64,000 bases of DNA from the sequence record EF437941; one strand, 5' to 3'. The DNA is from Escherichia phage Phi1. This document shows, piece after piece, positions 66 to 58,709 of this stretch. The translations under genes were made by a program, and so were the position numbers. Position 1 is the first letter of the stretch, and each line of letters begins with the position of its first letter. Below the pieces are notes generated by a model that saw only the letters and a list, made by a program, of their open reading frames with translations, was not told where the DNA came from and ran no database searches.

Positions 66-1280
66 TTAAGCAGGATGCGTTTCACGAATGCGTAGAACTC
101 GCTCTAACGTCTCTCGGTCCAGTTTATGTAACTCTTTGGAATGATACATGAAACCATTGCGAGATTCCATGCAAGTGCAATCACTATATTTTTCTTCCGC
201 TGCCGCGATTGTCTCCAGATCTTTGGCGTACTTGCTGGTTGAATAAACTTCTCGATCACGCCACTCTAACCCAGCCTCATTGAATTTAACAATCTCGTCA
301 AATACCCACCATCCAATGTAGATAAATGAAGTTTTGCGCCACGGGATCGGGTGTACGTAACGAAACATTTTAACAACTTCCATTGAACATTTTCGGCTTG
401 TACTTGCTGCAACTTCTACTGTTTCATCTTCGATCTGTTGATATAGTTTAGCAACACACCAGAATTTGGCTGTGTCATCGTAAGTAACACTCTCTTTGAA
501 CAGATGACCGTCTGGCATGATAGAAAATCCTTCCAGTGCTTCGCCGACCTCACTACCGATTAGAGTCGGTGACGGTTGCCCTTCGCGCTGCAAATACCAG
601 TTATATTTGATCGTCAAATTAGGCATACCGCTAGAATCGCCTACAATGTCCTCTGACACAACATAATTAAGTGATATCTCATTACCTAGTGCCACGGTCT
701 TTGATTCCACCACATCCTGATCTACGTTCATTGTTGCCAGCATGATTTTAGTCGATGCGCTAGCGGCTGAATCTTCCGACTCACCCCACACTTTTACAGT
801 ATACAAGCCGTTTTTATCTGCTGTAAATTCTCGGATTGTAATATCCTGTTTTGTGTCTATAACGTCTTCGCCCTTACTCCAACTATAATGTAGTTCATAG
901 TCGTCTGCTGGAGTCTTCCCACCAGAAAATTTTACTGTTGCATGTAATTCTACGTCTTTTTGTGATGATACGTAAAAATGCTGCGGTTCGGTGATATTTA
1001 CGATTAATTCAGCTTCTTCCATGAGGAAAACTTCAGATTCTACTGATTCCGTCGTATCGGTATCTTGTACCGTTACTTTATAGCTACCCGCATTTTCACT
1101 TGTTGCGTCTGCTACAGTTAGCGTAGCTGTGTTATTTTCATGCGGTTGGTCGTCTTTTGTCCATGTATATGTCAAATTGCTGGGTAATGGTTCGTCACCC
1201 GCTACAGTCGCCGTTAAGGTGAAACCATCTCCAGCAAGAAAACATCTTTTGTTAGATTGTATTGATACTGTGAAAGCCAT
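66..1280 (-). CDS. hoc: Hoc-like outer capsid decoration protein with Ig-like domains
   Basis: Tandem Ig-like beta-rich repeats plus a distinct C-terminal domain; sits next to inh/uvsW as in T4. Confidence 0.7.
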   Translation of the reverse strand: MAFTVSIQSNKRCFLAGDGFTLTATVAGDEPLPSNLTYTWTKDDQPHENNTATLTVADATSENAGSYKVTVQDTDTTESVESEVFLMEEAELIVNITEPQHFYVSSQKDVELHATVKFSGGKTPADDYELHYSWSKGEDVIDTKQDITIREFTADKNGLYTVKVWGESEDSAASASTKIMLATMNVDQDVVESKTVALGNEISLNYVVSEDIVGDSSGMPNLTIKYNWYLQREGQPSPTLIGSEVGEALEGFSIMPDGHLFKESVTYDDTAKFWCVAKLYQQIEDETVEVAASTSRKCSMEVVKMFRYVHPIPWRKTSFIYIGWWVFDEIVKFNEAGLEWRDREVYSTSKYAKDLETIAAAEEKYSDCTCMESRNGFMYHSKELHKLDRETLERVLRIRETHPA

Positions 1281-1375
1281 ATAAAGCCACTCCCATCGAA
1301 AATCCGAATTTAATTAATTGAAATAGTTGATTGTCATCAACCAGATAACCATTGCGAGATTCCAATACATGAGTA

Positions 1376-1540
1376 TTAGAATAGTGATGCAACGAGGCCG
1401 AAATAGTATCGATCTCGTCTGGGTATTTGTTCTGCTATAAAGTCTGCTGTACTAACAACAATCTTTAACAGAAGTGGATGACCAACGGAGCCATAAACCG
1501 GATCTTCTGTTTGATGTAATACATTGATTTTGTTAGACAT
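1376..1540 (-). CDS. Small hypothetical protein
   Basis: Track ORF; likely start at the internal Met (MSNKINV...) preceded by an AAGAGGA RBS. Confidence 0.4.
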   Translation of the reverse strand: MSNKINVLHQTEDPVYGSVGHPLLLKIVVSTADFIAEQIPRRDRYYFGLVASLF

Positions 1541-1620
1541 GTAGTATCCTCTTTTTAATTGCATAACGGAACTACAATTAAAATTATAACAAATATTTCA
1601 CAACTTTTATCACCCAAAAA

Positions 1621-2346
1621 TTACTTGAGTGTGTGGAATTGGCTATGTTTAGTCTCTCGCACCTTGACAGACCCATCGCGTTTGATATAATAGATCAGTG
1701 ACTTGAGGGTGTCGTGTACATACGCGTGCGGGAAACGCTCTGGATACTTCTTCCAATCTGGAGTATTAACGATCCAGTCGAAAATCCACCACGGGCAGGA
1801 GTAGTAACCACGACCGCCACCGATCAAACAAATGGTCGGACGGAAACCAGTAAGATCGCAAAATGAATCAGTGTCATGTGCTGGGGAACGATGTTCTGCT
1901 TCGTCAGAGAAAATGTTTGCTACCGGAGATTTCACTTTAACTTCCGGTGCTTCTTCAACATCTGACTTAACTTCTTCGACCACTTGTTCAACTGCTGGAG
2001 ATTCTTCTTTTGTTTCTTCAATGACGATCTCAGGTTCTTTCATTGCTTCACCCAGAGACGGATCAACTTCGTCAAATACTACTTTATCATCTGCGGTATC
2101 TGCTGCCAGAATAAGATCGTTAATACTGGTTCCTTCTGCCGGAGTTTCTTCTTCCATTTCGGAAGCCAGTTTAGTTAATTCGGTTTCTACGAACTCGATC
2201 ATGTTCTCTAGCGAGAGCGTCTTTTTGACCTTTATATCAAATTGTTTTGCGTAGTCCGCTAATTCTGTTTTAGCTGTTTTCTGTGCTTCTTTGTCGTCGG
2301 ACGCCGCAATAGCGCGGAGTTCTTCGAAATATTCTTTATCAAACAT
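1621..2346 (-). CDS. Acidic protein at the T4 inh position
   Basis: 241 aa with a Glu/Asp-rich centre and Cys/Trp-rich C-terminus; assigned by position between hoc and uvsW only. Confidence 0.4.
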   Translation of the reverse strand: MFDKEYFEELRAIAASDDKEAQKTAKTELADYAKQFDIKVKKTLSLENMIEFVETELTKLASEMEEETPAEGTSINDLILAADTADDKVVFDEVDPSLGEAMKEPEIVIEETKEESPAVEQVVEEVKSDVEEAPEVKVKSPVANIFSDEAEHRSPAHDTDSFCDLTGFRPTICLIGGGRGYYSCPWWIFDWIVNTPDWKKYPERFPHAYVHDTLKSLIYYIKRDGSVKVRETKHSQFHTLK

Positions 2347-2373
2347 GTTATTCTCCTGATTGGGGGGTGTTTG

Positions 2374-2381
2374 TATAAATA
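2374..2381 (+). promoter_or_regulatory. T4-type late promoter box TATAAATA upstream of uvsW
   Basis: Exact TATAAATA about 37 nt upstream of the uvsW ATG. Confidence 0.5.
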
Positions 2382-2417
2382 TTTGTATACTGTATTTATT
2401 GAGTGAGGCTATTCGCT

Positions 2418-3920
2418 ATGCAAGATATTAAAATTCACTTTCTGAACTACTCTCATGTTCAAATTGAATGTAGCGATTCAATTTTATTAGAAATGCGAGA
2501 TTATTTTAGTTTTGAAGTCGAGGGAGCGCGGTTTCAAAAAAGATTTAAGTATGGTGGATGGGATGGGCGTATTCGTCTTTTAGATTACAACGGAAAGCTG
2601 CCAATCGGCCTAACTAAAACCGTGGGAATCTTCGCTAAAAATATGGGCTATAGCGTATGGGTAGATCCTCGCTTATTCGAAAAAGAACAAGTTACAGAAG
2701 AAGAAATTACAAAATGGTGTAATGACTTAGAATTATATTCCGGTGCTAACAGGATCACCCCTCATTGGTATCAATCAAAGGCCGTCTTTGAAGGTATTCA
2801 TCATAAACGCCGTATGTTAGTTTTGCCTACGTCCGCTGGTAAATCTGCGATTGCTTGTATGTTGTCTCGTTGGTACTTAGAGAATTACGAAGGGAAAGTG
2901 TTGATCATCGTTCCTACCACGTCGCTAGTGCTGCAAATGCGTGATGACTTTGTTGATTATCGCCAGTTTCCTTATGAAGCAATTCATACTATCATGAGCG
3001 GTACTAGTAAACACGTAGGTGATCGCCTGATCGTTGTTAGTACGTGGCAATCTGCATGTAAACAACCTCGTGAGTGGTTCCAACAATTCGGGATGGTTAT
3101 TGTTGACGAATGTCACAAAGCCACTGCTAAAAACCTGCTAAACATCGTTACTGATATGGATCATTGCCAATTTAAGATCGGCATGACTGGTTCCCCTCGT
3201 GACGGGAAAGCTAACATGATGCAGTATGTCGGGCTTTTCGGTGATATTTCTAAGATCGTGAGTATTGACCGCCTGATGGAAGAAGGGCAGGTGACAAAAC
3301 TGAAAATTAACTGTCTTTTCCTTCGTTATACCGATGAGGAATGTAGCGCGGTTAAGGGGCGAGAATATGCGGAAGAGATCAAGTATATTACGTCTAACCC
3401 ACGACGAAATAAGTTTGCTTGTAATTTGGCGCTAAAACTCGCTAAGAAGGGAGAAAACGTATTCCTGATGTTCCGCAATACTAAGCACGGAAAACTTATG
3501 TATGATGCGTTACAGAAGGTACACGACAAGGTTTATTATATTGACGGTGGAGTTAAGACAGAAGAACGTGATGAATTTAAGAAAATGGCGGAGGGTGACA
3601 CCGGGATCATTTGTGTTGCGTCTTATGGTGTGTTCTCTACTGGTGTTTCAATTAAGAATTTGCACCATGTTATTTTCGGTCATCCAGTGAAGGAATCAAC
3701 TATCGTTCGTCAGAGTATCGGTCGTGCATTGCGTAAACATGGTTCGAAAGACATTGCAACGGTCTGGGATCTTATAGATCATCTGGCGGTGAAGACAAAG
3801 AGCAAGAATGCTAAGAAACAGTTTAGTCACCTTAATTATGCTCTTAAACATGCCCTTGAAAGAATAAAAATTTACAACACCGACCGATTCGAATATGTCA
3901 CGAAAACCATCGAGATATAA
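2418..3920 (+). CDS. uvsW: UvsW SF2 DNA helicase
   Basis: Strong similarity to T4 UvsW from MQDIKIHF onward, with Walker A (PTSAGKS) and DECH motifs; the track ORF begins at an upstream GTG. Confidence 0.9.
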   Translation: MQDIKIHFLNYSHVQIECSDSILLEMRDYFSFEVEGARFQKRFKYGGWDGRIRLLDYNGKLPIGLTKTVGIFAKNMGYSVWVDPRLFEKEQVTEEEITKWCNDLELYSGANRITPHWYQSKAVFEGIHHKRRMLVLPTSAGKSAIACMLSRWYLENYEGKVLIIVPTTSLVLQMRDDFVDYRQFPYEAIHTIMSGTSKHVGDRLIVVSTWQSACKQPREWFQQFGMVIVDECHKATAKNLLNIVTDMDHCQFKIGMTGSPRDGKANMMQYVGLFGDISKIVSIDRLMEEGQVTKLKINCLFLRYTDEECSAVKGREYAEEIKYITSNPRRNKFACNLALKLAKKGENVFLMFRNTKHGKLMYDALQKVHDKVYYIDGGVKTEERDEFKKMAEGDTGIICVASYGVFSTGVSIKNLHHVIFGHPVKESTIVRQSIGRALRKHGSKDIATVWDLIDHLAVKTKSKNAKKQFSHLNYALKHALERIKIYNTDRFEYVTKTIEI

Positions 3921-3925
3921 TAAAT

Positions 3926-3950
3926 AGGGGCTTTAATGCCCCTCTATTCT
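3926..3950 (+). terminator. Possible weak terminator after uvsW
   Basis: AGGGGCTTTAATGCCCCT hairpin followed by a pyrimidine-rich tract. Confidence 0.3.
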
Positions 3951-3963
3951 ACGGAGATTACAA

Positions 3964-4200
3964 ATGATTAGCTTTAAACGTTTTTTGGTTGAGGCCGCTA
4001 TTGACGGTTTCATGCGTAAGATTTATTCTTGTAATACTATCGAGGGATTAAATGAACTTGAGGCATATTATGAGAAGCGCAAGAAAGAAACAGAATTGAA
4101 ACCTGCTGATGATATTTCGATCCGTGATGCCATCGCTGGACGCCGTAAGCAATTGGAAGCGGACAACGAGCCAGAAGAGGAGCCGGAAGAGGATTTTTAA
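3964..4200 (+). CDS. uvsW.1: UvsW.1-like small protein
   Basis: 78 aa ORF immediately downstream of uvsW, as in T4; acidic C-terminus. Confidence 0.6.
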   Translation: MISFKRFLVEAAIDGFMRKIYSCNTIEGLNELEAYYEKRKKETELKPADDISIRDAIAGRRKQLEADNEPEEEPEEDF

Positions 4201-4204
4201 GATA

Positions 4205-4230
4205 TAAAAAAGCCCCATCAATGATGGGGC
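4205..4230 (-). terminator. Rho-independent terminator (minus strand)
   Basis: GCCCCATCAATGATGGGGC hairpin followed on the minus strand by a U-run. Confidence 0.5.
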
Positions 4231-4263
4231 AAAATAAACCAATTAAAATCGGTTATCAACAAA

Positions 4264-4440
4264 TTACATTAACAGCATTGTTTGCTCTACGAGTTGTTCT
4301 TGTTCTTCGCCGTTCGCATCTTCACTAATCGAACGTTCTGTTACTAGCTGTAAGCAGTAGCCAGTGTGAACAACGCCGTTTTCTGTCTGGACTGATAACG
4401 CATCCTCGACAGGTTGTTTACAACAAATACAGATTTTCAT
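4264..4440 (-). CDS. Small CxxC protein at the T4 uvsY.-2 position
   Basis: 58 aa ORF MKICICCKQP... below the track cutoff, read by hand; lies between uvsW.1 and uvsY. Confidence 0.45.
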   Translation of the reverse strand: MKICICCKQPVEDALSVQTENGVVHTGYCLQLVTERSISEDANGEEQEQLVEQTMLLM

Positions 4441-4461
4441 AAAAATTCCTCCTGCATGTAT

Positions 4462-8387: not shown

Positions 8388-10117
8388 ATGACGCATTAAC
8401 ATCATTTCGCGGGATGCGCAAGGAAGCGGAAGAAAACCCGATTGATAAACTTAACAAATTAGATAAACTTGATTCTATTGATAATTTGCAAGCCGCTACC
8501 GAATTGGTGGCGGAGACAGTAGAACAAAAATCTAATGAAGTTGTTGGTGCGGTCGAGGATAACACCGCAGCCAATGAATTGACGGCAGAAAATACACAAT
8601 CTACCGCTGGCAATACCAAAAAAACTTATGAAGAATTGCAAAAACTCAATAATTTCTCTTCTCAGATGAATGAGAAATTACGTGGTTTTGGTGTTATGAT
8701 GGAACGTAGATTTGGTGTTGTCAGTAAAATGGCTAGCGGTATTGGTGCGATTGAAGAAGCACTGAAAAAACCGGAACAACCGCAAACAATGCCATCACCT
8801 CAGCCAGTTTTGCCTACTGTACCGGAACAGCCTAATAATGACAACTATCAAGGTCTTCCAAAGAAAAAACCGGATGTTGATGACCGAAAGAAAAAGAACG
8901 CCGCAGATAAGCGTAATGCCGATTCTATGGAAAATCTTCTTAAAGTTGTTCGTGGAGGATTTAAAGAAACCATAGGTATCTCTAATAAGGTCTTAGGGAT
9001 GTTATTTAAGATCACCTTGACCGCTATGGCAGAAGCCGCAAAATGGGGTGCTATTTTGATGGGTATTGTTTTTGTCATTGATACCCTGATGGTTCATTTC
9101 AGATATTGGAGTGATTTATTCGAAACAAAATTCAATGAATTTATGGATAAGGCCGGAGGATGGGCTGGTCCTATTAGCGATATTTTAACTACTGTTCGTC
9201 AGGTTCGAGATTATTGGTCTAAAGGAGAATATAAAGAATTAATTAAATCGCTGGTTATGGGTATTGGTGATGCATTCTATAAAACCTTTATCCAACTTGA
9301 TCGAATTATCACTACTGGTATTGCTAAAATTCTTCGTATGATCCCTGGTATGGGTGATTATGCCGATAAGTTAGAATACGGTGCTTTAAAGTCTGCTGTC
9401 GCTCAAGGCTATACGCCAAATGAAAGAGAACTCGAATTAATGGATAAGGTCGAGTCTGAACATGAAGAAGACAAATATGGAGAGCGTACTGGTTGGACCG
9501 GAAAAGCCCGTGACATTGGCGAAGCTATTGGGGATTCTATTAAGGATAAAGTTAACGAAGGTCTTGTTAGTCTGGGCTGGAGAGATCAAAAGGATGTTGA
9601 CGCAGAGAAACGACAAGAAGAATTAAAACGCGGGGAATATAAGTCTGTTTCTGCTGAACAACGATCTGCTAGTCGTAAACTTAGAATTAAAAGCGAGGGC
9701 GCGATCAATAATATTAATGAAGTTATGGAGAATTTGAGCGGTGACTATGACAAAGAAAGAATGGGAGAGTTGAAAAAGGATATTGATGTTTACCGTGAGC
9801 AAGTTCAAGATCCTACATTAGTTGAAAGTGATCGTTCTCAGTTAGAGCGTCTTATTGAAAAATTTGATGAGATGTATGCTGATAAAACTAATGGTGTGGT
9901 TCCAACTAATCCTGTTCCTGCAACTGAAACGGAAACAGCAAAACAAGCGGAACGTACTGAACAAATGCAGAAACAAGCTGCAATCCAGCAACAAACGACA
10001 AATCAGACCTCAAACGTAAATAATACACAAATTGTAACAAACAATAGAACTGTTAAACAGGGTGCACCAACAACTAGAATTGATGCCCCCGGTACAATTA
10101 ATATGGGGAACTTTTAA
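8384..10117 (+). CDS. 29: Baseplate hub / tail length determinator gp29
   Basis: 577 aa (T4 gp29 is 590 aa), coiled-coil rich, in synteny. Confidence 0.8.
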   Translation: MNDALTSFRGMRKEAEENPIDKLNKLDKLDSIDNLQAATELVAETVEQKSNEVVGAVEDNTAANELTAENTQSTAGNTKKTYEELQKLNNFSSQMNEKLRGFGVMMERRFGVVSKMASGIGAIEEALKKPEQPQTMPSPQPVLPTVPEQPNNDNYQGLPKKKPDVDDRKKKNAADKRNADSMENLLKVVRGGFKETIGISNKVLGMLFKITLTAMAEAAKWGAILMGIVFVIDTLMVHFRYWSDLFETKFNEFMDKAGGWAGPISDILTTVRQVRDYWSKGEYKELIKSLVMGIGDAFYKTFIQLDRIITTGIAKILRMIPGMGDYADKLEYGALKSAVAQGYTPNERELELMDKVESEHEEDKYGERTGWTGKARDIGEAIGDSIKDKVNEGLVSLGWRDQKDVDAEKRQEELKRGEYKSVSAEQRSASRKLRIKSEGAINNINEVMENLSGDYDKERMGELKKDIDVYREQVQDPTLVESDRSQLERLIEKFDEMYADKTNGVVPTNPVPATETETAKQAERTEQMQKQAAIQQQTTNQTSNVNNTQIVTNNRTVKQGAPTTRIDAPGTINMGNF

Positions 10118-11175: not shown

Positions 11176-12107
11176 TGTTTGATTTAAATGATTTTAACGA
11201 ACAAGCCGCTAACCTTGACTTTCAGCGATCCAACTTATTCAGCGTGGCATTTGCCACCACTCCAAGTAATAAGACACAAGCGATCCTAGAAAGTATGGGC
11301 GGGGCGGTATATGATATTATACCAAATGCATTAAATGACTATTTCGGGATTACTCGTGGTGATTATACTGACGCATTAACAAATCTTGCTGTACAGGGTG
11401 TTAGGCGTGCTGTTGATTCATCCGGTGTCAAAAAGTATCTTTTAGGTGCAATGTCATCCCGCGTAGTTCAATCTCTTCTGGGGCAATTTGATGTTGGTAC
11501 ATATGCGCTTGACTGGTTCAATATGGCATATAAGACAAGCGGTCTTCTGGTGTATGCTGTTAAGGTTCCAGAAAACAGATTGAATTATGAAATGGACCGT
11601 AACCACAATGCGCCAAACATTCGAATTACCGGACGTGATTTTGATCCGCTTGTGTTGAGCTTTAGAATGGACTCTAGCGCATCAAACTATAGAGCAATGC
11701 AAGATTGGGTTAACTCAGTAGAAGACCCCGTCACAGGGCTTCGTGCGCTTCCTGTTGACGTTGAAGCGGATATTCAGGTCAACTTACATAACCGAATGGG
11801 AGTCCCTCACACGATCATGATGTTTAATGGTTGTGTTCCTGTTGGTGTGAGTGCACCGGAATTAACCTATGAAAACAACAACGAAATTACAACATTCGAT
11901 GTTGTTTTTGCGTATAGGACTATGCAAACTGGTGCTGTAGGAGAGCAAGCCGCGCGAGAATGGATTGAGGATAAGGCAATAAACGCAATAACAAACACTT
12001 TCGGCAATAATTTACTTGATAGTGGGTTATCTGCTGCTGGTAATGCTTTATCGCGTCTAAATGGCGTTGGTGGGCGTGTGGTGAATACTGTCACCAACTG
12101 GTTCTAA
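11175..12107 (+). CDS. 54: Baseplate tail-tube initiator gp54
   Basis: 310 aa, position and size as T4 gp54. Confidence 0.75.
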   Translation: MFDLNDFNEQAANLDFQRSNLFSVAFATTPSNKTQAILESMGGAVYDIIPNALNDYFGITRGDYTDALTNLAVQGVRRAVDSSGVKKYLLGAMSSRVVQSLLGQFDVGTYALDWFNMAYKTSGLLVYAVKVPENRLNYEMDRNHNAPNIRITGRDFDPLVLSFRMDSSASNYRAMQDWVNSVEDPVTGLRALPVDVEADIQVNLHNRMGVPHTIMMFNGCVPVGVSAPELTYENNNEITTFDVVFAYRTMQTGAVGEQAAREWIEDKAINAITNTFGNNLLDSGLSAAGNALSRLNGVGGRVVNTVTNWF

Positions 12108-12117
12108 TAAGCGAAAG

Positions 12118-12146
12118 GCGGGGATAATCCCCGCCTTTTTATTTTG
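12118..12146 (+). terminator. Rho-independent terminator after gene 54
   Basis: GGCGGGGATAATCCCCGCC hairpin followed by TTTTTATTTT; lies between convergent genes. Confidence 0.7.
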
Positions 12147-12624
12147 CTAAATCATTGCAATATTTTAGTGCCTTAGTTTGAAATTCTGCGCTGTTAAGTT
12201 CTTCATAACGGTCATAATCACCGTTTAATGCTGCCTTTCTTGCTTCTTGCTCTATCTGCATGTCAGACATGATAATACAGCGATCCCGCGCTTTCATCTT
12301 CTCAAGTTGTATAGACTCTTCTTTCTGCTTGCGCAATTCTTCTTGACGCTTCTTTTCTTCTTGTGCTTTCTCTTCCCGCGCTTCTTTGATTGCATCCTTG
12401 AACATCTGCGTTTGTGGTGCTAAACCAACTTTAACGCGATCCACGTCTCGACGTTCCATTTTAGAAATAAAGCATGATTCGATCTGATCATCACTTGCAT
12501 ATGCTGCTTTACATTCACGAAGCAAGAAAACCGGATCTGATTTAGCATTCATCATAGCTTCCATGTTGGCACAACCAGTAAGCATGAATGCAGCCGCAAG
12601 ACCAATCAGTTTAATCATTTTCAT
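12139..12624 (-). CDS. Putative lipoprotein
   Basis: Signal peptide with lipobox (AAAFMLTGC), then a charged coiled-coil-like region. Confidence 0.5.
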   Translation of the reverse strand: MKMIKLIGLAAAFMLTGCANMEAMMNAKSDPVFLLRECKAAYASDDQIESCFISKMERRDVDRVKVGLAPQTQMFKDAIKEAREEKAQEEKKRQEELRKQKEESIQLEKMKARDRCIIMSDMQIEQEARKAALNGDYDRYEELNSAEFQTKALKYCNDLAK

Positions 12625-13445
12625 TTAGTCACCTCACCGAAAATTGTAAATTGTCTACGATTCTCATCGCCGAAAGATTCTACTACGTCGTTTACCTTGA
12701 CGCAAGTCCCGCGCGGTAAAATTACTTCACATTCGCAAGGGTTCCATGCAATTGACCCAACAACAAAACCTTTATGATCTTTTACGTCAATTACCCATGA
12801 TACATTACAAGAATGTTGCATCTTTCCGGTCATGGATTCATATCGATTCTCACAATAAAGGCTAGTGCTATTTGAAAGCCAGCCTCCAAAGATGATCGGT
12901 GTCATGCTGGTCGATACAAAGTTTTTAAAGGTAAACTCCTTATCTTCAATAATACGCTCTATTGTCTGAATGTCAAGATGTTGACCGCGATAAAGAGTAC
13001 CGTTTAACTTTTCGGTTTTATCCATGACACAATCCATCAAATCAACAATCTCTGATATCTCATCGGTCATGTCTTCTTCCCCTAAGAGAGCACCATTTAC
13101 CCATTCGTATTGTTCAGACACATAATCACAGATTGCATTATATTCTGCTGGGGTTATGTTGTTATGTTTGTAATGTTTGAATACATTATCTCCAAAGTCT
13201 TCGGAGTGTACTTCATACATCACATTAATGATTTTCTTGACAAATCCATAATCTTGTGTCTCACGCTCAAGGAAGCGGATAACCTTCACATAATCATCAA
13301 AGTTAATCTGATCGCTGATCATCTCAGTGATCATGTAACCATTAATCCCCTCAATGTCATATGTTTCGATGTAATTATCCATACGTTCCATCATTGATTC
13401 GCGTGATTCTTCTGAAAGACGAAAATCCTGTAATTTCTTGAACAT
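12621..13445 (-). CDS. Alt-like ADP-ribosyltransferase paralog (catalytic domain only)
   Basis: Shares YRG ... FxFKNFVSTS ... IFGGW ... ECE(V/I)LPRG motifs with the C-terminus of the adjacent alt gene. Confidence 0.6.
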   Translation of the reverse strand: MFKKLQDFRLSEESRESMMERMDNYIETYDIEGINGYMITEMISDQINFDDYVKVIRFLERETQDYGFVKKIINVMYEVHSEDFGDNVFKHYKHNNITPAEYNAICDYVSEQYEWVNGALLGEEDMTDEISEIVDLMDCVMDKTEKLNGTLYRGQHLDIQTIERIIEDKEFTFKNFVSTSMTPIIFGGWLSNSTSLYCENRYESMTGKMQHSCNVSWVIDVKDHKGFVVGSIAWNPCECEVILPRGTCVKVNDVVESFGDENRRQFTIFGEVTK

Positions 13446-13463
13446 TTTAAACCTCCCATATAA

Positions 13464-13496
13464 CAGAAAACGGGGCTAGTATAAAACTAGTCCCCG
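13464..13496 (-). terminator. Rho-independent terminator downstream of alt
   Basis: CGGGGCTAGT...ACTAGTCCCCG hairpin followed on the minus strand by UUUUCUG. Confidence 0.5.
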
Positions 13497-13523
13497 TTTG
13501 AGTCAACCATTATTTCTTAAAAA

Positions 13524-15575
13524 TTACATTTTAAATTTATCTGGCATTGCGTCTACAGATACCAGATCAGCGATAAGCTGACGTAGAGTTGCCTTATCTG
13601 CTTTCTTACGTTCGGTTTTAGCTTCGCTAATGAAGCTGGAGAAAGACAGGTCAGAAGCAGGTTTAACAACACCTTCACGGATGAATGCATCACCGTCCGC
13701 GATCATCTCACCAGATTCTTGTAATGCTGCCAGTTCACTTTTGTTCATAATATGTGCCTCAATGTAATAAGTTTCTTGTGAATCCGTAGATGCCGTAGCA
13801 CGAGTTACCGTATCAAAGGATAACACAACACCGCGAGGAAGTAAAATCTCGCATTCTTTGTAAGCAAATGCTTTGTTACCTACTGGCAATACAGGGATGT
13901 TTTCCGCGCCAGCAATGGAGAAAGCAACATTAGCGCCACCTTCACCGCGAGATCCAGCCATAGAATCTACCCCAGCAACGGCACTAGCCACGTTTGCATT
14001 CCAGCCGCCAAAAATGTTAGGTGCAAGGGAAGTGCTCACGTAGTTTTTAAAGTAAAACGCTTTTTGCTTACGTGCAGTTTCCCACATTTGAGACCGGAAG
14101 TCCATACCACGATACAGAATAGTACCCGGATCAAGTTTAACGCCATAGTTAGAGAAGGCATTATCCAGTGCATCGCACATCTTGACCAATTCTTCTGGAT
14201 CTGCGATTCCCTCAAACTCTTCCAGCTTGCGATCAGTTAGGAAGTTGTTCATATTGATGTATGCTGCATCGGCATATTCGCTCAACACAAAACCTTCCGC
14301 GCCCGGCAGATCAAGATCAATATCTGCCATCATTTCACCCATGTTGCTAGCAATTGCTTCAAACATACCGGACGCAACATTACGAAGGGCATCGGTTTTA
14401 ATCTGGGTGATATGACTACGCAGCATTTCAGCTTTTACATCTGCTGGCATAGACTGGTCTACTCGATCCATTGCCAGGGCGGTGATCTTGTTTTCGAATA
14501 CTTCCTCGCTCATGATTTCTTTTAAGCGTTTGATTGATGCTGCGATAACTTCCGCAGACAACGGATCATATTGATCCTGAACTTTTACCAGTTCGCTTAC
14601 TGCGTATTTTGCATCGGCTTCGCTTTCAAAAATAGTACGCATGAAACCATAGCGAGTGATAATATCACTTGTCCAGTCATTCAGAGAACGGGCGGTTGAA
14701 CGTTCTAAGGCTTGACGGTCAATCAGAGTATTAAACTGTTTCTTAGGTTCTGCTTCGGTGATATCTTCTTCCGGTTTAAGATTAATTTTTTCTGGATGAT
14801 TCACATAGTCGCTGTTATAGGTCGCTTGAGTTTTCAGCATTTCTTCTTTAGTCAAACGAGATTTAGCCGCTACGCGTTGTTCCGCTTCCGCGTTTCGTTC
14901 TTCTTCTGACACAAGACTAGCCGCATATGCCTCATCTTTAGTCAGAGATTCACCAGTAGCCTTAGATACCCAGCGATCACCTAAATCACTTTCTACTTTA
15001 GTGAACAAGGATTCATCAAGTTTAATCCCTTTAATCTTATCAATCGCCATCCCGCGACGCTTGACAACAACTAAAGCGATCTTTTTGCTGGTCATTACTT
15101 CCTGCTGGAATACTTCAAACTTCGGTGTACGACGCACCAAACGCTCTATAACGCGCTTAACCAGTTCGGTCTTACCTTTCATGCGGGATACGTTAAAACG
15201 GAACATAACAGCGTCTAATTGCGCTTTACGGGCTGTTTCCATAACCACATCAAACGCACTTGCCATAACTGCAATCGGGTTATCGCCTAGACCATTTTTA
15301 AGCTGTACAATACGACCGCTTTTGTTCATTTCGCACAGTACAACATGTGCGGTCTTGTCACCCATACGAATGATTTTAGGTGTTTTGTTGGTGAAGTTAC
15401 AAAGACGGACAATCACATCTTTATCGCGTGTCTGTACTGCAAAAAGCTGTTTAGGATTCTGCTTCGGCTTTAAGCACTGTACCGGAGCAATACTGCCAAA
15501 GTTTTCTTCCTCTTCCGTCAACAGCCATTTCTCGAAAGATTCAATCATTAGATCGTCGATTTCTAAGTTAAACAT
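13524..15575 (-). CDS. alt: Alt ADP-ribosyltransferase (packaged)
   Basis: 683 aa (T4 Alt is 682 aa) with a C-terminal R-S-E type ART domain; conserved position after gene 54. Confidence 0.8.
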   Translation of the reverse strand: MFNLEIDDLMIESFEKWLLTEEEENFGSIAPVQCLKPKQNPKQLFAVQTRDKDVIVRLCNFTNKTPKIIRMGDKTAHVVLCEMNKSGRIVQLKNGLGDNPIAVMASAFDVVMETARKAQLDAVMFRFNVSRMKGKTELVKRVIERLVRRTPKFEVFQQEVMTSKKIALVVVKRRGMAIDKIKGIKLDESLFTKVESDLGDRWVSKATGESLTKDEAYAASLVSEEERNAEAEQRVAAKSRLTKEEMLKTQATYNSDYVNHPEKINLKPEEDITEAEPKKQFNTLIDRQALERSTARSLNDWTSDIITRYGFMRTIFESEADAKYAVSELVKVQDQYDPLSAEVIAASIKRLKEIMSEEVFENKITALAMDRVDQSMPADVKAEMLRSHITQIKTDALRNVASGMFEAIASNMGEMMADIDLDLPGAEGFVLSEYADAAYINMNNFLTDRKLEEFEGIADPEELVKMCDALDNAFSNYGVKLDPGTILYRGMDFRSQMWETARKQKAFYFKNYVSTSLAPNIFGGWNANVASAVAGVDSMAGSRGEGGANVAFSIAGAENIPVLPVGNKAFAYKECEILLPRGVVLSFDTVTRATASTDSQETYYIEAHIMNKSELAALQESGEMIADGDAFIREGVVKPASDLSFSSFISEAKTERKKADKATLRQLIADLVSVDAMPDKFKM

Positions 15576-15608
15576 TTTATATCCTCTAGTTGATAACCTA
15601 TAAACCTA

Positions 15609-15616
15609 TATTTATG
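15609..15616 (-). promoter_or_regulatory. Possible late promoter variant (CATAAATA) upstream of alt
   Basis: One mismatch from TATAAATA, about 30 nt upstream of the alt ATG. Confidence 0.3.
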
Positions 15617-15621
15617 AAAAA

Positions 15622-15643
15622 GGGGCTTAACGCCCCCCTTTTA
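15622..15643 (-). terminator. Hairpin / putative terminator between the small-gene array and alt
   Basis: GGGGC-TTAAC-GCCCC stem-loop flanked by T/A runs on both strands. Confidence 0.4.
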
Positions 15644-15856
15644 TTATAATGCACCATCGAGCAATTGCTCTAAGGTGTATCCTGAATAGTCTTTTTCAAT
15701 CAGGGTATATTTTCCTACTCGTTTAATACAACCGCGCATTTCAACGTATTCTGCGTAGTTGATGGTACGAGTTGTTCCATCTTCCAGTAATGCAGTACCG
15801 ATTTCGTTAATGCGGTCATAAGTTACGTCGGTAATGATGATTTCGATGTTAGCCAT
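15644..15856 (-). CDS. Small hypothetical early protein
   Basis: 70 aa ORF with GGAG RBS, preceded by an early promoter cassette. Confidence 0.5.
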   Translation of the reverse strand: MANIEIIITDVTYDRINEIGTALLEDGTTRTINYAEYVEMRGCIKRVGKYTLIEKDYSGYTLEQLLDGAL

Positions 15857-16177: not shown

Positions 16178-16732
16178 TTAGTTATTTTTTAATTGCTCAT
16201 CTTGCAATAGGGAAATCACATGCTGGCGATGTTCTTCCGATTGAGGGACACCGAAAAAGTTTGTTTTGTAGAAATACTCTAATCGGTCTTCTCGTGTGCT
16301 CTCTTCCATCATGATCGCGGGTAGTCCGAGATTTCGGAAACGTCGCTTTTCTGCTGGCGTAAAATCACTGTAATACAGCATAGAATCATCGTTACCAGCA
16401 ATGCTAAACTCATCATTCATGAAGGAGAATATTGCGTTTAAACGCTGTTTACCGTCCACGATTTCGATCTCATAGCGAGAGCCATCATCAATCTTAGCCA
16501 TTGCGATAGCACCAACCGGAAAATCATTAATCAGGTTTTCGATAAACATACGTTTGTTTTCGGTGTCCCATACCAAAGGACGCTGATAATCTGGGTTCAT
16601 GTTGATATAGCCATCTTCTAACCACGCCTCATAAACAGAGATGACAAAGTTTTTAGTATTGGTATAGTAACGGCGTTTAGGCGTTAAACGGTTCATGTTA
16701 TAGTCTCCTGAATGGATCATCACGTAAATCAA
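16178..16732 (-). CDS. ParB/Srx-fold DUF262-like protein
   Basis: Motifs PDYQRPLVW and IVDGKQRLNAI resemble the DUF262 (GmrSD N-terminal) signature; last gene of a coupled operon. Confidence 0.5.
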   Translation of the reverse strand: MIYVMIHSGDYNMNRLTPKRRYYTNTKNFVISVYEAWLEDGYINMNPDYQRPLVWDTENKRMFIENLINDFPVGAIAMAKIDDGSRYEIEIVDGKQRLNAIFSFMNDEFSIAGNDDSMLYYSDFTPAEKRRFRNLGLPAIMMEESTREDRLEYFYKTNFFGVPQSEEHRQHVISLLQDEQLKNN

Positions 16733-17030
16733 TATCTTTTAAGAACTCATCCCATGAATGGCGGATATTGTTCTTAATTCTCCAGATAAGCGCAGGGATT
16801 GAACGCTCTCCCATCTGGAAGTAAGGATCATATGATCCGTATGCCCAATATGCTACTACAATTCCACAATCAGCGCAATAATATTCTATTTCACTTGCTG
16901 GCGACCAAAGTCCATCAATATGATCGGTGATCCTGCTTTCGATGTTATGGCTATGGCAATCAGGGCAACGGATGCAATGACCTTGTTTATCGTAATTTGA
17001 CGTTAGCGAATACTTAAACAATCTCATCAT
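16698..17030 (-). CDS. Zinc-ribbon protein
   Basis: CxxC...CxxC pairs (CIRCPDC, CADCG); overlaps both neighbours, suggesting translational coupling. Confidence 0.45.
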   Translation of the reverse strand: MMRLFKYSLTSNYDKQGHCIRCPDCHSHNIESRITDHIDGLWSPASEIEYYCADCGIVVAYWAYGSYDPYFQMGERSIPALIWRIKNNIRHSWDEFLKDIDLRDDPFRRL

Positions 17031-17743
17031 AGATCCTTATTGGCTTCAAATACTGCCTTTGCGAATCCTCGCGGGGTAAGTGACCTGATAGTCTTTGTTC
17101 TGGTTCCTTTCCCGCCTAGCTTAGAATGCTGTTTACTGTACCCTTTATTAATATGCAACGGTTTCTTTTCTGGCATTATAAAGCCTTGTCCGGTCCATAA
17201 GCAAGTCTTTTTCGGGTACATATCACGGGCGGCAATATACTCAGGAAACGTAGGATGTTTATCATCTTCCGGCAAATAACCGCCATATTCCCACGGATGG
17301 AACATGTAATCAGGCTTACGCCACATACTAGAGATAACGCTTACAGGATTCTCTATCATGTAGGGAACTCCTAGCCATTCACCCAAATAAGCGGTTATTT
17401 TAGCTGCCCGTACATCATGAACTTGAATCAATGGTCCTTGTTCTCGTTTCTTTCGTTCAAAGTGTGCAGCGCCACTAACAGCTAAATTGGTGCACGGTGG
17501 GAATGCAAATATAATATCCGGTTTCCCCCATTCAAGGTCCATTGCTCTTTCCAGCCAGTTCAAATCAATCCAGGTGTTTACATAAGTAATGTTTGGATGT
17601 TCAAATCTGGTATTATACTTTTTGTATGTACCGTGGTCGGCGTCATCCGCATTAAAGCAGACTACCTTATGACCTGCTTTAGCCCATTCTAGCCCCATTA
17701 TCCCCGATCCGTCAAAGTTGCAGAATATTAATTTTTGTTTCAT
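17027..17743 (-). CDS. Minimal cytosine-C5 methyltransferase-like protein
   Basis: 238 aa with motif I-like FDGSG, motif IV-like FPPC and motif VI-like ENP in canonical order; no obvious target-recognition domain. Confidence 0.4.
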   Translation of the reverse strand: MKQKLIFCNFDGSGIMGLEWAKAGHKVVCFNADDADHGTYKKYNTRFEHPNITYVNTWIDLNWLERAMDLEWGKPDIIFAFPPCTNLAVSGAAHFERKKREQGPLIQVHDVRAAKITAYLGEWLGVPYMIENPVSVISSMWRKPDYMFHPWEYGGYLPEDDKHPTFPEYIAARDMYPKKTCLWTGQGFIMPEKKPLHINKGYSKQHSKLGGKGTRTKTIRSLTPRGFAKAVFEANKDL

Positions 17744-18518: not shown

Positions 18519-18548
18519 AGTATAGGGGATCTCCCGACCCCCGTCAAC
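18519..18548 (-). promoter_or_regulatory. Early promoter cassette (TTGACG-N17-TATACT)
   Basis: Conserved architecture with a GATC-containing GC-rich spacer. Confidence 0.5.
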
Positions 18549-21793: not shown

Positions 21794-21823
21794 AGTATAG
21801 GGGATCGGTGATCCCCTGTCAAC
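21794..21823 (-). promoter_or_regulatory. Early promoter cassette (TTGACA-N17-TATACT) with GATC palindrome
   Basis: Spacer AGGGGATCACCGATCCCCT. Confidence 0.55.
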
Positions 21824-34257: not shown

Positions 34258-34287
34258 ATTATAGCGGGGATTTCTCCCCGCGTCAAC
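34258..34287 (-). promoter_or_regulatory. Early promoter cassette (TTGACG-N17-TATAAT)
   Basis: Spacer palindrome GCGGGGAGAAATCCCCGC; immediately after the nrdA stop. Confidence 0.5.
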
Positions 34288-58679: not shown

Positions 58680-58709
58680 AGTATAGGGGATCGCCGATCC
58701 CCTGTCAAC
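58680..58709 (-). promoter_or_regulatory. Early promoter cassette (TTGACA-N17-TATACT) with GATC palindrome
   Basis: Spacer AGGGGATCGGCGATCCCCT. Confidence 0.55.

Follow-up and report, generated by a model that had tools for sequence, protein, structure and literature searches.

Probable late and early transcription units for two Alt-type ADP-ribosyltransferase genes at the alt locus of Escherichia phage Phi1

We analyzed the alt locus in a 64,000-nucleotide stretch of DNA from Escherichia phage Phi1 (sequence record EF437941; hereafter the window), where alt, the gene of a full-length Alt-type ADP-ribosyltransferase (ART), is followed by a gene for a short ART (sART) and one for a predicted lipoprotein. 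The arrangement of promoters and terminators suggests that the three genes belong to two transcription units of different timing. We consider it probable, though well short of certain, that a late unit supplies a packaged Alt and an early unit supplies an unpackaged sART along with an exported lipoprotein.

All three genes lie on the minus strand, alt at 13524..15575 (683 aa), sART at 12621..13445 (274 aa), and the lipoprotein gene at 12139..12624 (161 aa). A preliminary description of the sequence had placed two Alt-type ARTs in tandem here, with a lipoprotein gene directly downstream of the shorter one, and we found the trio at those coordinates: both ART open reading frames (ORFs) match the family, and an ORF with a lipobox overlaps the sART stop codon, the stop and the start sharing four nucleotides (ATGA). 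Around the trio, the plus strand holds baseplate genes of the T4 type (29, 48, and 54), and the minus strand holds a series of small early genes. Distant metagenomic relatives keep the order alt, sART, lipoprotein, and convergent gp54. Bases 12000–15700 of the window are 98.5 to 99.5% identical to 57 phage records, the highest identity (99.5%) being to Krischvirus GEC-3S and Cognac. These records with the locus represent the genus Krischvirus, including RB49, JSE, GEC-3S, Cognac, and ECD7, and by its sequence the source phage is an RB49-like (Krischvirus) T4-type coliphage.

The arrangement is real, yet already annotated and published, and finding it amounts to the rediscovery of an RB49-type feature. 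In 57 public Krischvirus genomes, the three genes are present with annotation, and the relation of sART to alt as a paralogue has been in print since 2006: RB49ORF183c, which equals sART, was named an alt paralogue and placed in a series of second alt copies of T4-type phages (Nolan 2006). The RB49 record in GenBank labels ORF183c "similar to C-terminal part of T4 Alt protein," and the RefSeq label for the protein is ADP-ribosyltransferase. The lipoprotein gene equals RB49ORF182c and appears as "putative lipoprotein" in phage W115 and as "Lipoprotein" in UniProt for KFS-EC.

Results

Promoters and terminators of the alt locus

Upstream of alt, a terminator-like hairpin with a T-run (GGGGGGCGTTAAGCCCCTTTTT; 15617..15638, minus strand) ends the preceding early unit; its stem was found in the window, and the element is annotated as a terminator in GEC-3S. 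After the hairpin and T-run, about 30 nt before the alt start codon, stands CATAAATA (ATAAATA; 15609..15616, minus strand), a putative late promoter that matches the T4 late consensus TATAAATA at seven of eight positions. T4 and T2 both have a hairpin and then TATAAATA in the matching place before alt, and the metagenomic relative L010 has a hairpin and then AATAAATA. This layout fits late transcription of alt, as would be expected of a head-packaged protein.

The sART and lipoprotein genes appear to form an operon with a promoter of its own. A sigma-70-type early promoter (TTGACT-17 nt-TATACT; 13478..13506, minus strand) was recognized by 10 matches in 12 positions and is annotated as a promoter in GEC-3S, and the sART gene has its own Shine–Dalgarno sequence. 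Nested in the promoter spacer and −10 region is the terminator hairpin of alt (13469..13498, minus strand), predicted by RNA folding as a 12-bp stem followed by a T-rich stretch (TTTTCTGTT), with a free energy of −20.9 kcal/mol and a z-score of −2.3. Such a composite, in which an early sigma-70 promoter holds a GC-rich stem–loop between −35 and −10, is of the type of the PeSL promoter–terminator motif described for RB49 and phi1 (PMC2839356, PMC4122927). The promoter is kept in the loci L010, L011, L013, and L014. Across four divergent metagenomic loci, with sARTs 44 to 48% identical, both promoter elements (−35 and −10) persist together with the hairpin, whose stem shows two compensatory pairs. 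At the far end of the pair, a bidirectional intrinsic terminator (12113..12139, both strands; 12-bp stem with seven GC pairs) is shared with the convergent gp54 gene; it is annotated on both strands in GEC-3S, and equivalent hairpins are found in L010 and L013.

Promoters of the form TTGAC-N16-18-TANAMT number 17 in the window against 1.56 expected (11-fold), nearly all of them on the early-gene strand. Further examples lie at 18519–18547, 21794–21822, 34258–34286, and 58680–58708 (minus strand), several with a GC-rich hairpin in the spacer, and these belong to the PeSL cassettes known from RB49 and phi1. The promoter and terminator layout at the alt locus lends indirect support to an sART that is expressed early and, as the preliminary description had thought probable, not packaged.

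Alt and sART carry the same catalytic motifs

The 683-aa protein appears to be Alt proper by architecture, with the N-terminal region, the ART domain, a C-terminal tail of the MPxKF type (AMPDKFKM), the gene-54 locus, and the late-promoter-like ATAAATA. It matches phrog_802, "Alt-like RNA polymerase ADP-ribosyltransferase," from end to end (E 6e-180; residues 16–683 on profile positions 2–674 of 674) and PF03496 at E 2e-9. BLAST aligns it end to end with T4 Alt at 27% identity over 695 columns (E 9e-61). Its motifs are LYRG at 487–490, STS at 514–516, and ECE at 574–576, and its pN/pS is 0 to 0.04. T4 gpAlt, of which it is the full-length orthologue, occupies the same place beside genes 54, 48, and 29, with the same terminator and late-promoter layout.

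The shorter protein matches PF03496 (ADPrib_exo_Tox) with 59.3 bits against a cut-off of 23.4 (E 4e-16; residues 82–266 on positions 2–187 of 196) and phrog_15144 at E 3e-198. We aligned sART with Krischvirus Alt, T4 Alt, T4 ModA, and T4 ModB and located its catalytic motifs: the arginine motif L151-Y-R153-G (12984..12995), the STS motif S178-T-S180 (12906..12914), and the ExE motif E238-C-E240 (12726..12734) followed by VILPRG, all on the minus strand. They line up with LYRG, STS, and ECEILLPRG of Krischvirus Alt and with LYRS, STS, and EMEVILPRG of T4 Alt, and ExE is invariant even with T4 ModA and ModB included. The two neighboring ART domains share 37% identity over 109 residues (E 1e-16). 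The comparison of catalytic domains that the preliminary description had called for thus upholds its view that the 274-aa protein retains the catalytic motifs; had R, STS, or ExE been missing, that view would have fallen.

In a wider alignment of eight sequences at 23 to 83% identity, consisting of seven homologs and the catalytic half of the window Alt, R153, STS178–180, and E238/E240 are among 23 invariant columns. The AlphaFold2 (AF2) model of sART (pLDDT 83, pTM 0.80) has an N-terminal helical region of about 90 to 95 aa followed by the ART domain, and Foldseek matches it with probability 1.0 to Vis, C3, Certhrax, CDTa, and iota toxin (E about 1e-9 to 1e-10). A profile score above threshold, R, STS, and ExE in this order, and the predicted ART fold place sART in the R-S-E clade. 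The ORF is intact in 57/57 records, the protein is 97 to 100% identical among them, and pN/pS is 0 to 0.07, with pS between Krischvirus genomes of up to 0.13. Since the catalytic residues are invariant, the fold is modeled, and there are nearly no replacements, sART is a maintained enzyme rather than a relic and is almost certainly active. In ARTs of the R-S-E clade, ExE in place of QxE goes with arginine specificity, and from its ExE motif sART is probably an arginine-specific mono-ADP-ribosyltransferase.

Relation of sART to Alt and Mod enzymes

The absence of the long N-terminal region, also claimed in the preliminary description, is borne out by the profile match: sART covers only positions 330–602 of the 674 in phrog_802 and is without the N-terminal 330 or so residues of Alt. 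The C-terminal tail is missing as well; shared by Krischvirus Alt, T4 Alt, and both T2 copies, it measures about 85 aa and has MPxKF at its end. Because both the N-terminal region and the tail are missing, we file sART by sequence as an Alt-type catalytic paralogue and not as Alt proper. Compared with T4 gpAlt, it has the catalytic domain in common (31% identical over 181 residues, the R, STS, and ExE-VILPRG motifs being the same) and differs in lacking the two terminal regions and in having an early rather than a late promoter.

sART reaches 88 bits against T4 Alt but only 67 bits against the neighboring Krischvirus Alt. In a neighbor-joining tree of the catalytic domains, the sARTs form their own clade outside both the Krischvirus-type and the T-even-type full-length Alts, marginally closest to the second alt copy of T2 (37 to 38% identity). 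By these comparisons, sART is an old, separate sub-lineage of the Alt/VIP2 family. Its origin as a recent duplicate of the neighboring alt was rejected on the same two grounds, the higher score against T4 Alt and the separate clade.

Tandem alt paralogues at the alt locus are a known, recurrent feature. The second alt copies of T2, T4, and 44RR resemble sART in standing in tandem just downstream of alt and upstream of the convergent gene 54; in 44RR, these are the paralogues ORF187c and ORF188c at the equivalent locus. T2 has two full-length tandem genes of 697 and 685 aa (150–4304 of the locus record), and its second copy, gp211 (685 aa), differs from sART, which is a catalytic half only, with its own early promoter. 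In T4, alt.-1 and alt.-2 (4066–4451 of the locus record) are N-terminal fragments 56 to 62% identical to Alt residues 1–117 and, unlike sART, are relics without the catalytic domain. Two Alt-like proteins of intermediate length, P0048 (415 aa) and P0049 (316 aa), keep the C-terminal tail; in its catalytic domain, the former agrees with the second copy of T2 at 99% identity. Outside phages, the best structural matches of sART, the C3 exoenzyme, Vis, Certhrax, iota toxin Ia, and CDTa, belong to the same Pfam family but are only 14 to 20% identical, and they are secreted and have eukaryotic targets, whereas sART has no signal peptide or translocation domain.

T4 ModA and ModB, which are small, early, non-packaged ARTs, are like sART in their small size and R...ExE site, in the absence of a virion-targeting region, and in the early promoter that we infer for sART. 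They show no significant sequence similarity to it, and membership of sART in the Mod family was rejected (BLASTP E at least 0.6 against T4 ModA, T4 ModB, and RB49 ModB), sART belonging to the Alt/VIP2 family. RB49 has a single mod gene, modB, whose 167-aa product carries ALYRG ... ERE (RB49 record 8917–9420) and scores 45 bits against T4 ModB and 32 bits against T4 ModA; modA was not found in RB49. The Krischvirus ART count is three (Alt, sART, and one Mod), equal to that of T4, and the third is an Alt-type domain in place of a second Mod. It is an attractive idea, by analogy with T4, that sART may take over the job of ModA and complete the ADP-ribosylation of the RNA polymerase alpha subunit.

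A lipoprotein gene with exchanged alleles

The 161-aa protein is a predicted outer-membrane lipoprotein. Its N-terminus, MKMIKLIGLAAAFMLTGC, has a positively charged n-region, then a hydrophobic core, and then the lipobox L-T-G-C, followed by Ala at +2, and MKMIKLIGLAAAFM-LTGC fits the pattern of a signal peptide and lipobox [LVI][ASTVI][GAS]C; the codon of the lipobox cysteine, Cys18, is at 12571–12573. The protein matches phrog_16112 (E 9e-110), and its AF2 model (pLDDT 87.7) shows an all-helical mature part with four conserved cysteines. The lipobox (LTGC, LNGC, or LFGC), the four cysteines, and a G-D/N-Y...L-x-S motif are kept in all alleles and relatives, and the +2 residue is Ala or Ser, not Asp. 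Under the Lol rule of E. coli, a +2 residue other than Asp directs a lipoprotein to the outer membrane. The rule predicts this destination for the Phi1 protein.

The lipoprotein gene is polymorphic in the manner of a cassette. While 49 records carry alleles more than 95% identical to that of the window, six carry alleles at 29 to 30%, and phage JK32 has another divergent one; sART is 99 to 100% identical throughout the phages with the lipoprotein alleles of about 30% identity. DNA identity to Whisky, JK32, and 011D4 falls from 98–100% to 40–50% directly behind the signal-peptide codons, over the mature coding part (window 12139–12560; loci L007–L009), and in 011D4, it is back at 98% by the terminator. 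The 3' half of gene 54 (approximately 11200–12100, plus strand) is 97 to 100% identical to that of 011D4 and 73 to 87% identical to those of Whisky and JK32. Because of this divergence, the recombination tract that replaced the lipoprotein gene in Whisky and JK32 extends into the structural gene. The window allele is nearer to the lipoprotein of a distant relative (41%) than to the other Krischvirus alleles, from which we conclude that the alleles are old and have been exchanged by recombination.

Early-expressed outer-membrane lipoproteins that serve in superinfection exclusion are known from other phages, as in Llp of T5 and Cor of phi80, N15, and T1, and the Phi1 protein would resemble them in location and timing, early expression being here a prediction from the promoter. 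The likeness to Cor in sequence is a weak PHROG match (phrog_1119, E 0.0074) confined to residues 1–45, that is, the signal peptide and lipobox. For the helical mature part (143 aa), no structural or profile relatives were detected outside Krischvirus-like phages. Two candidate roles were set aside. A spanin was rejected from sequence, there being no partner i-spanin, no C-terminal transmembrane segment, and an early promoter. Blocking of the phage's own receptor was not supported, as both allele classes occur with both gp38 adhesin types and there is no covariation. The best hypothesis at hand, and a weakly supported one, gives the protein an envelope-facing role shaped by diversifying or frequency-dependent selection; superinfection exclusion is the first guess.

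A bolder proposal combines this guess with the one on ModA. The lipoprotein would then represent an undescribed, Krischvirus-restricted class of early, cassette-swapped envelope proteins with alleles under balancing or frequency-dependent selection, serving, for example, in superinfection exclusion or in the evasion of envelope-level defense, and sART would be a stand-in for ModA. We think this doubtful, though not negligible.

sART and the lipoprotein could also work together as a functional module, such as an early pair for host takeover or exclusion that acts on a single process. They have a single promoter and a single terminator, and relatives with 44 to 48% sART identity retain the pair, usually with stop and start codons that overlap or abut. 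The predicted compartments differ, however, the cytoplasm for sART and the periplasmic face of the outer membrane for the lipoprotein. Furthermore, lipoprotein alleles of about 30% identity are freely exchanged beside an invariant sART, which argues against a specific partnership between the two, and we consider a common function unlikely.

Packaging and decay as alternatives

A different account would make sART a second head-internal virion protein, injected together with Alt so that two substrate specificities are delivered at infection. sART adjoins alt and derives from it, and many phage Alt/VIP2 ARTs are head-packaged (PMC9503650). Against this stand the sigma-70 early promoter of sART, the alt terminator that separates it from late transcription, and the lack of the N-terminal region and C-terminal tail found in all full-length Alts; we regard packaging as quite unlikely. 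The N-terminus of sART, MFKKLQDFRLSE, loosely resembles MKTYQEFIAE, the capsid-targeting sequence of T4 IPIII, and ends in an L-x-E protease-like site. We rejected this resemblance as evidence for packaging: no other ORF of the window or of the RB49 genome has such an N-terminus, and the sART homologs do not conserve it.

That a tandem duplication of alt left sART as a decaying relic with no enzymatic role, as its shortening at both ends relative to Alt and the T4 relics alt.-1 and alt.-2 at the equivalent locus might suggest, is highly improbable in view of an ORF intact in every record, a pN/pS near zero although synonymous divergence reaches 13%, catalytic residues invariant in homologs down to 23% identity, a confidently modeled ART fold, and a promoter and Shine–Dalgarno sequence of its own.

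Neighboring genes

Antisense within alt lies a GTG-initiated ORF of 200 aa (15001–15603, plus strand), which is unsupported and was taken as spurious. Farther along the minus strand, a 184-aa protein (16178–16732) consists of a DUF262/GmrSD N-terminal domain only (Pfam E 5e-20; PADLOC NsnA E 7e-21), its gene lying two genes upstream of a DNA-methyltransferase-like ORF of 238 aa (17027–17743, minus strand). Such a DUF262-only protein, the half of a defense-type nuclease placed in an early region, could be a decoy or an anti-defense gene.

Discussion

The layout of the locus suggests how its two ARTs may be put to use at different times. alt would be read from the late promoter, and by homology with T4 gpAlt, its product would enter the prohead core, be trimmed by the prohead protease, and be injected with the DNA, mono-ADP-ribosylating arginines on the host RNA polymerase and other proteins. 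The late alt transcripts would end at the hairpin nested in the sigma-70 promoter. Early transcripts would begin within the 3' arm of this hairpin and continue across the sART and lipoprotein genes as far as the strong terminator at 12113–12139; because their start lies inside the arm, they could not form the hairpin themselves. sART would then be a cytoplasmic, catalytically competent enzyme, made de novo after infection and left unpackaged, and it would most likely widen or complete the modification of host proteins with a substrate range unlike that of Alt. The lipoprotein would leave the cytoplasm, receive its lipid at Cys18, and come to lie in the inner leaflet of the outer membrane; the swapping of its mature part as a cassette points to a host- or competitor-facing role in the envelope, such as superinfection exclusion.

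Several points weigh against this account of the locus. The motif upstream of alt falls one position short of a perfect TATAAATA, and no enrichment of exact TATAAATA was detected in the window. Read-through of the alt terminator could give late expression of sART as well. As the route by which Alt reaches the core is unresolved even in T4 (PMC9958956), the loss of the N-terminal region does not prove that sART stays out of the head. Lipoprotein and gp38 adhesin alleles do not covary, which disfavors a simple model of own-receptor blocking. Finally, a literature search found no transcript, virion-proteome, or enzymatic data for Krischvirus.

To the published description of the trio, the present analysis adds the conserved partition of late and early promoters and terminators between the two ART genes, evidence that the short ART represents an old lineage under strong constraint, from which the C-terminal tail of Alt is missing too, and the cassette-like polymorphism of the lipoprotein gene. 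With alleles of about 30% identity in a background of 98 to 100%, the lipoprotein cassette offers itself as a clean candidate determinant, facing host or competitor, in phages used for therapy. The occurrence of one ART scaffold in a packaged late and a free early form would be a natural experiment of modest value, and comparing the targets of Alt and sART would tell the parts of Alt that bring about packaging from those that set the choice of substrate.

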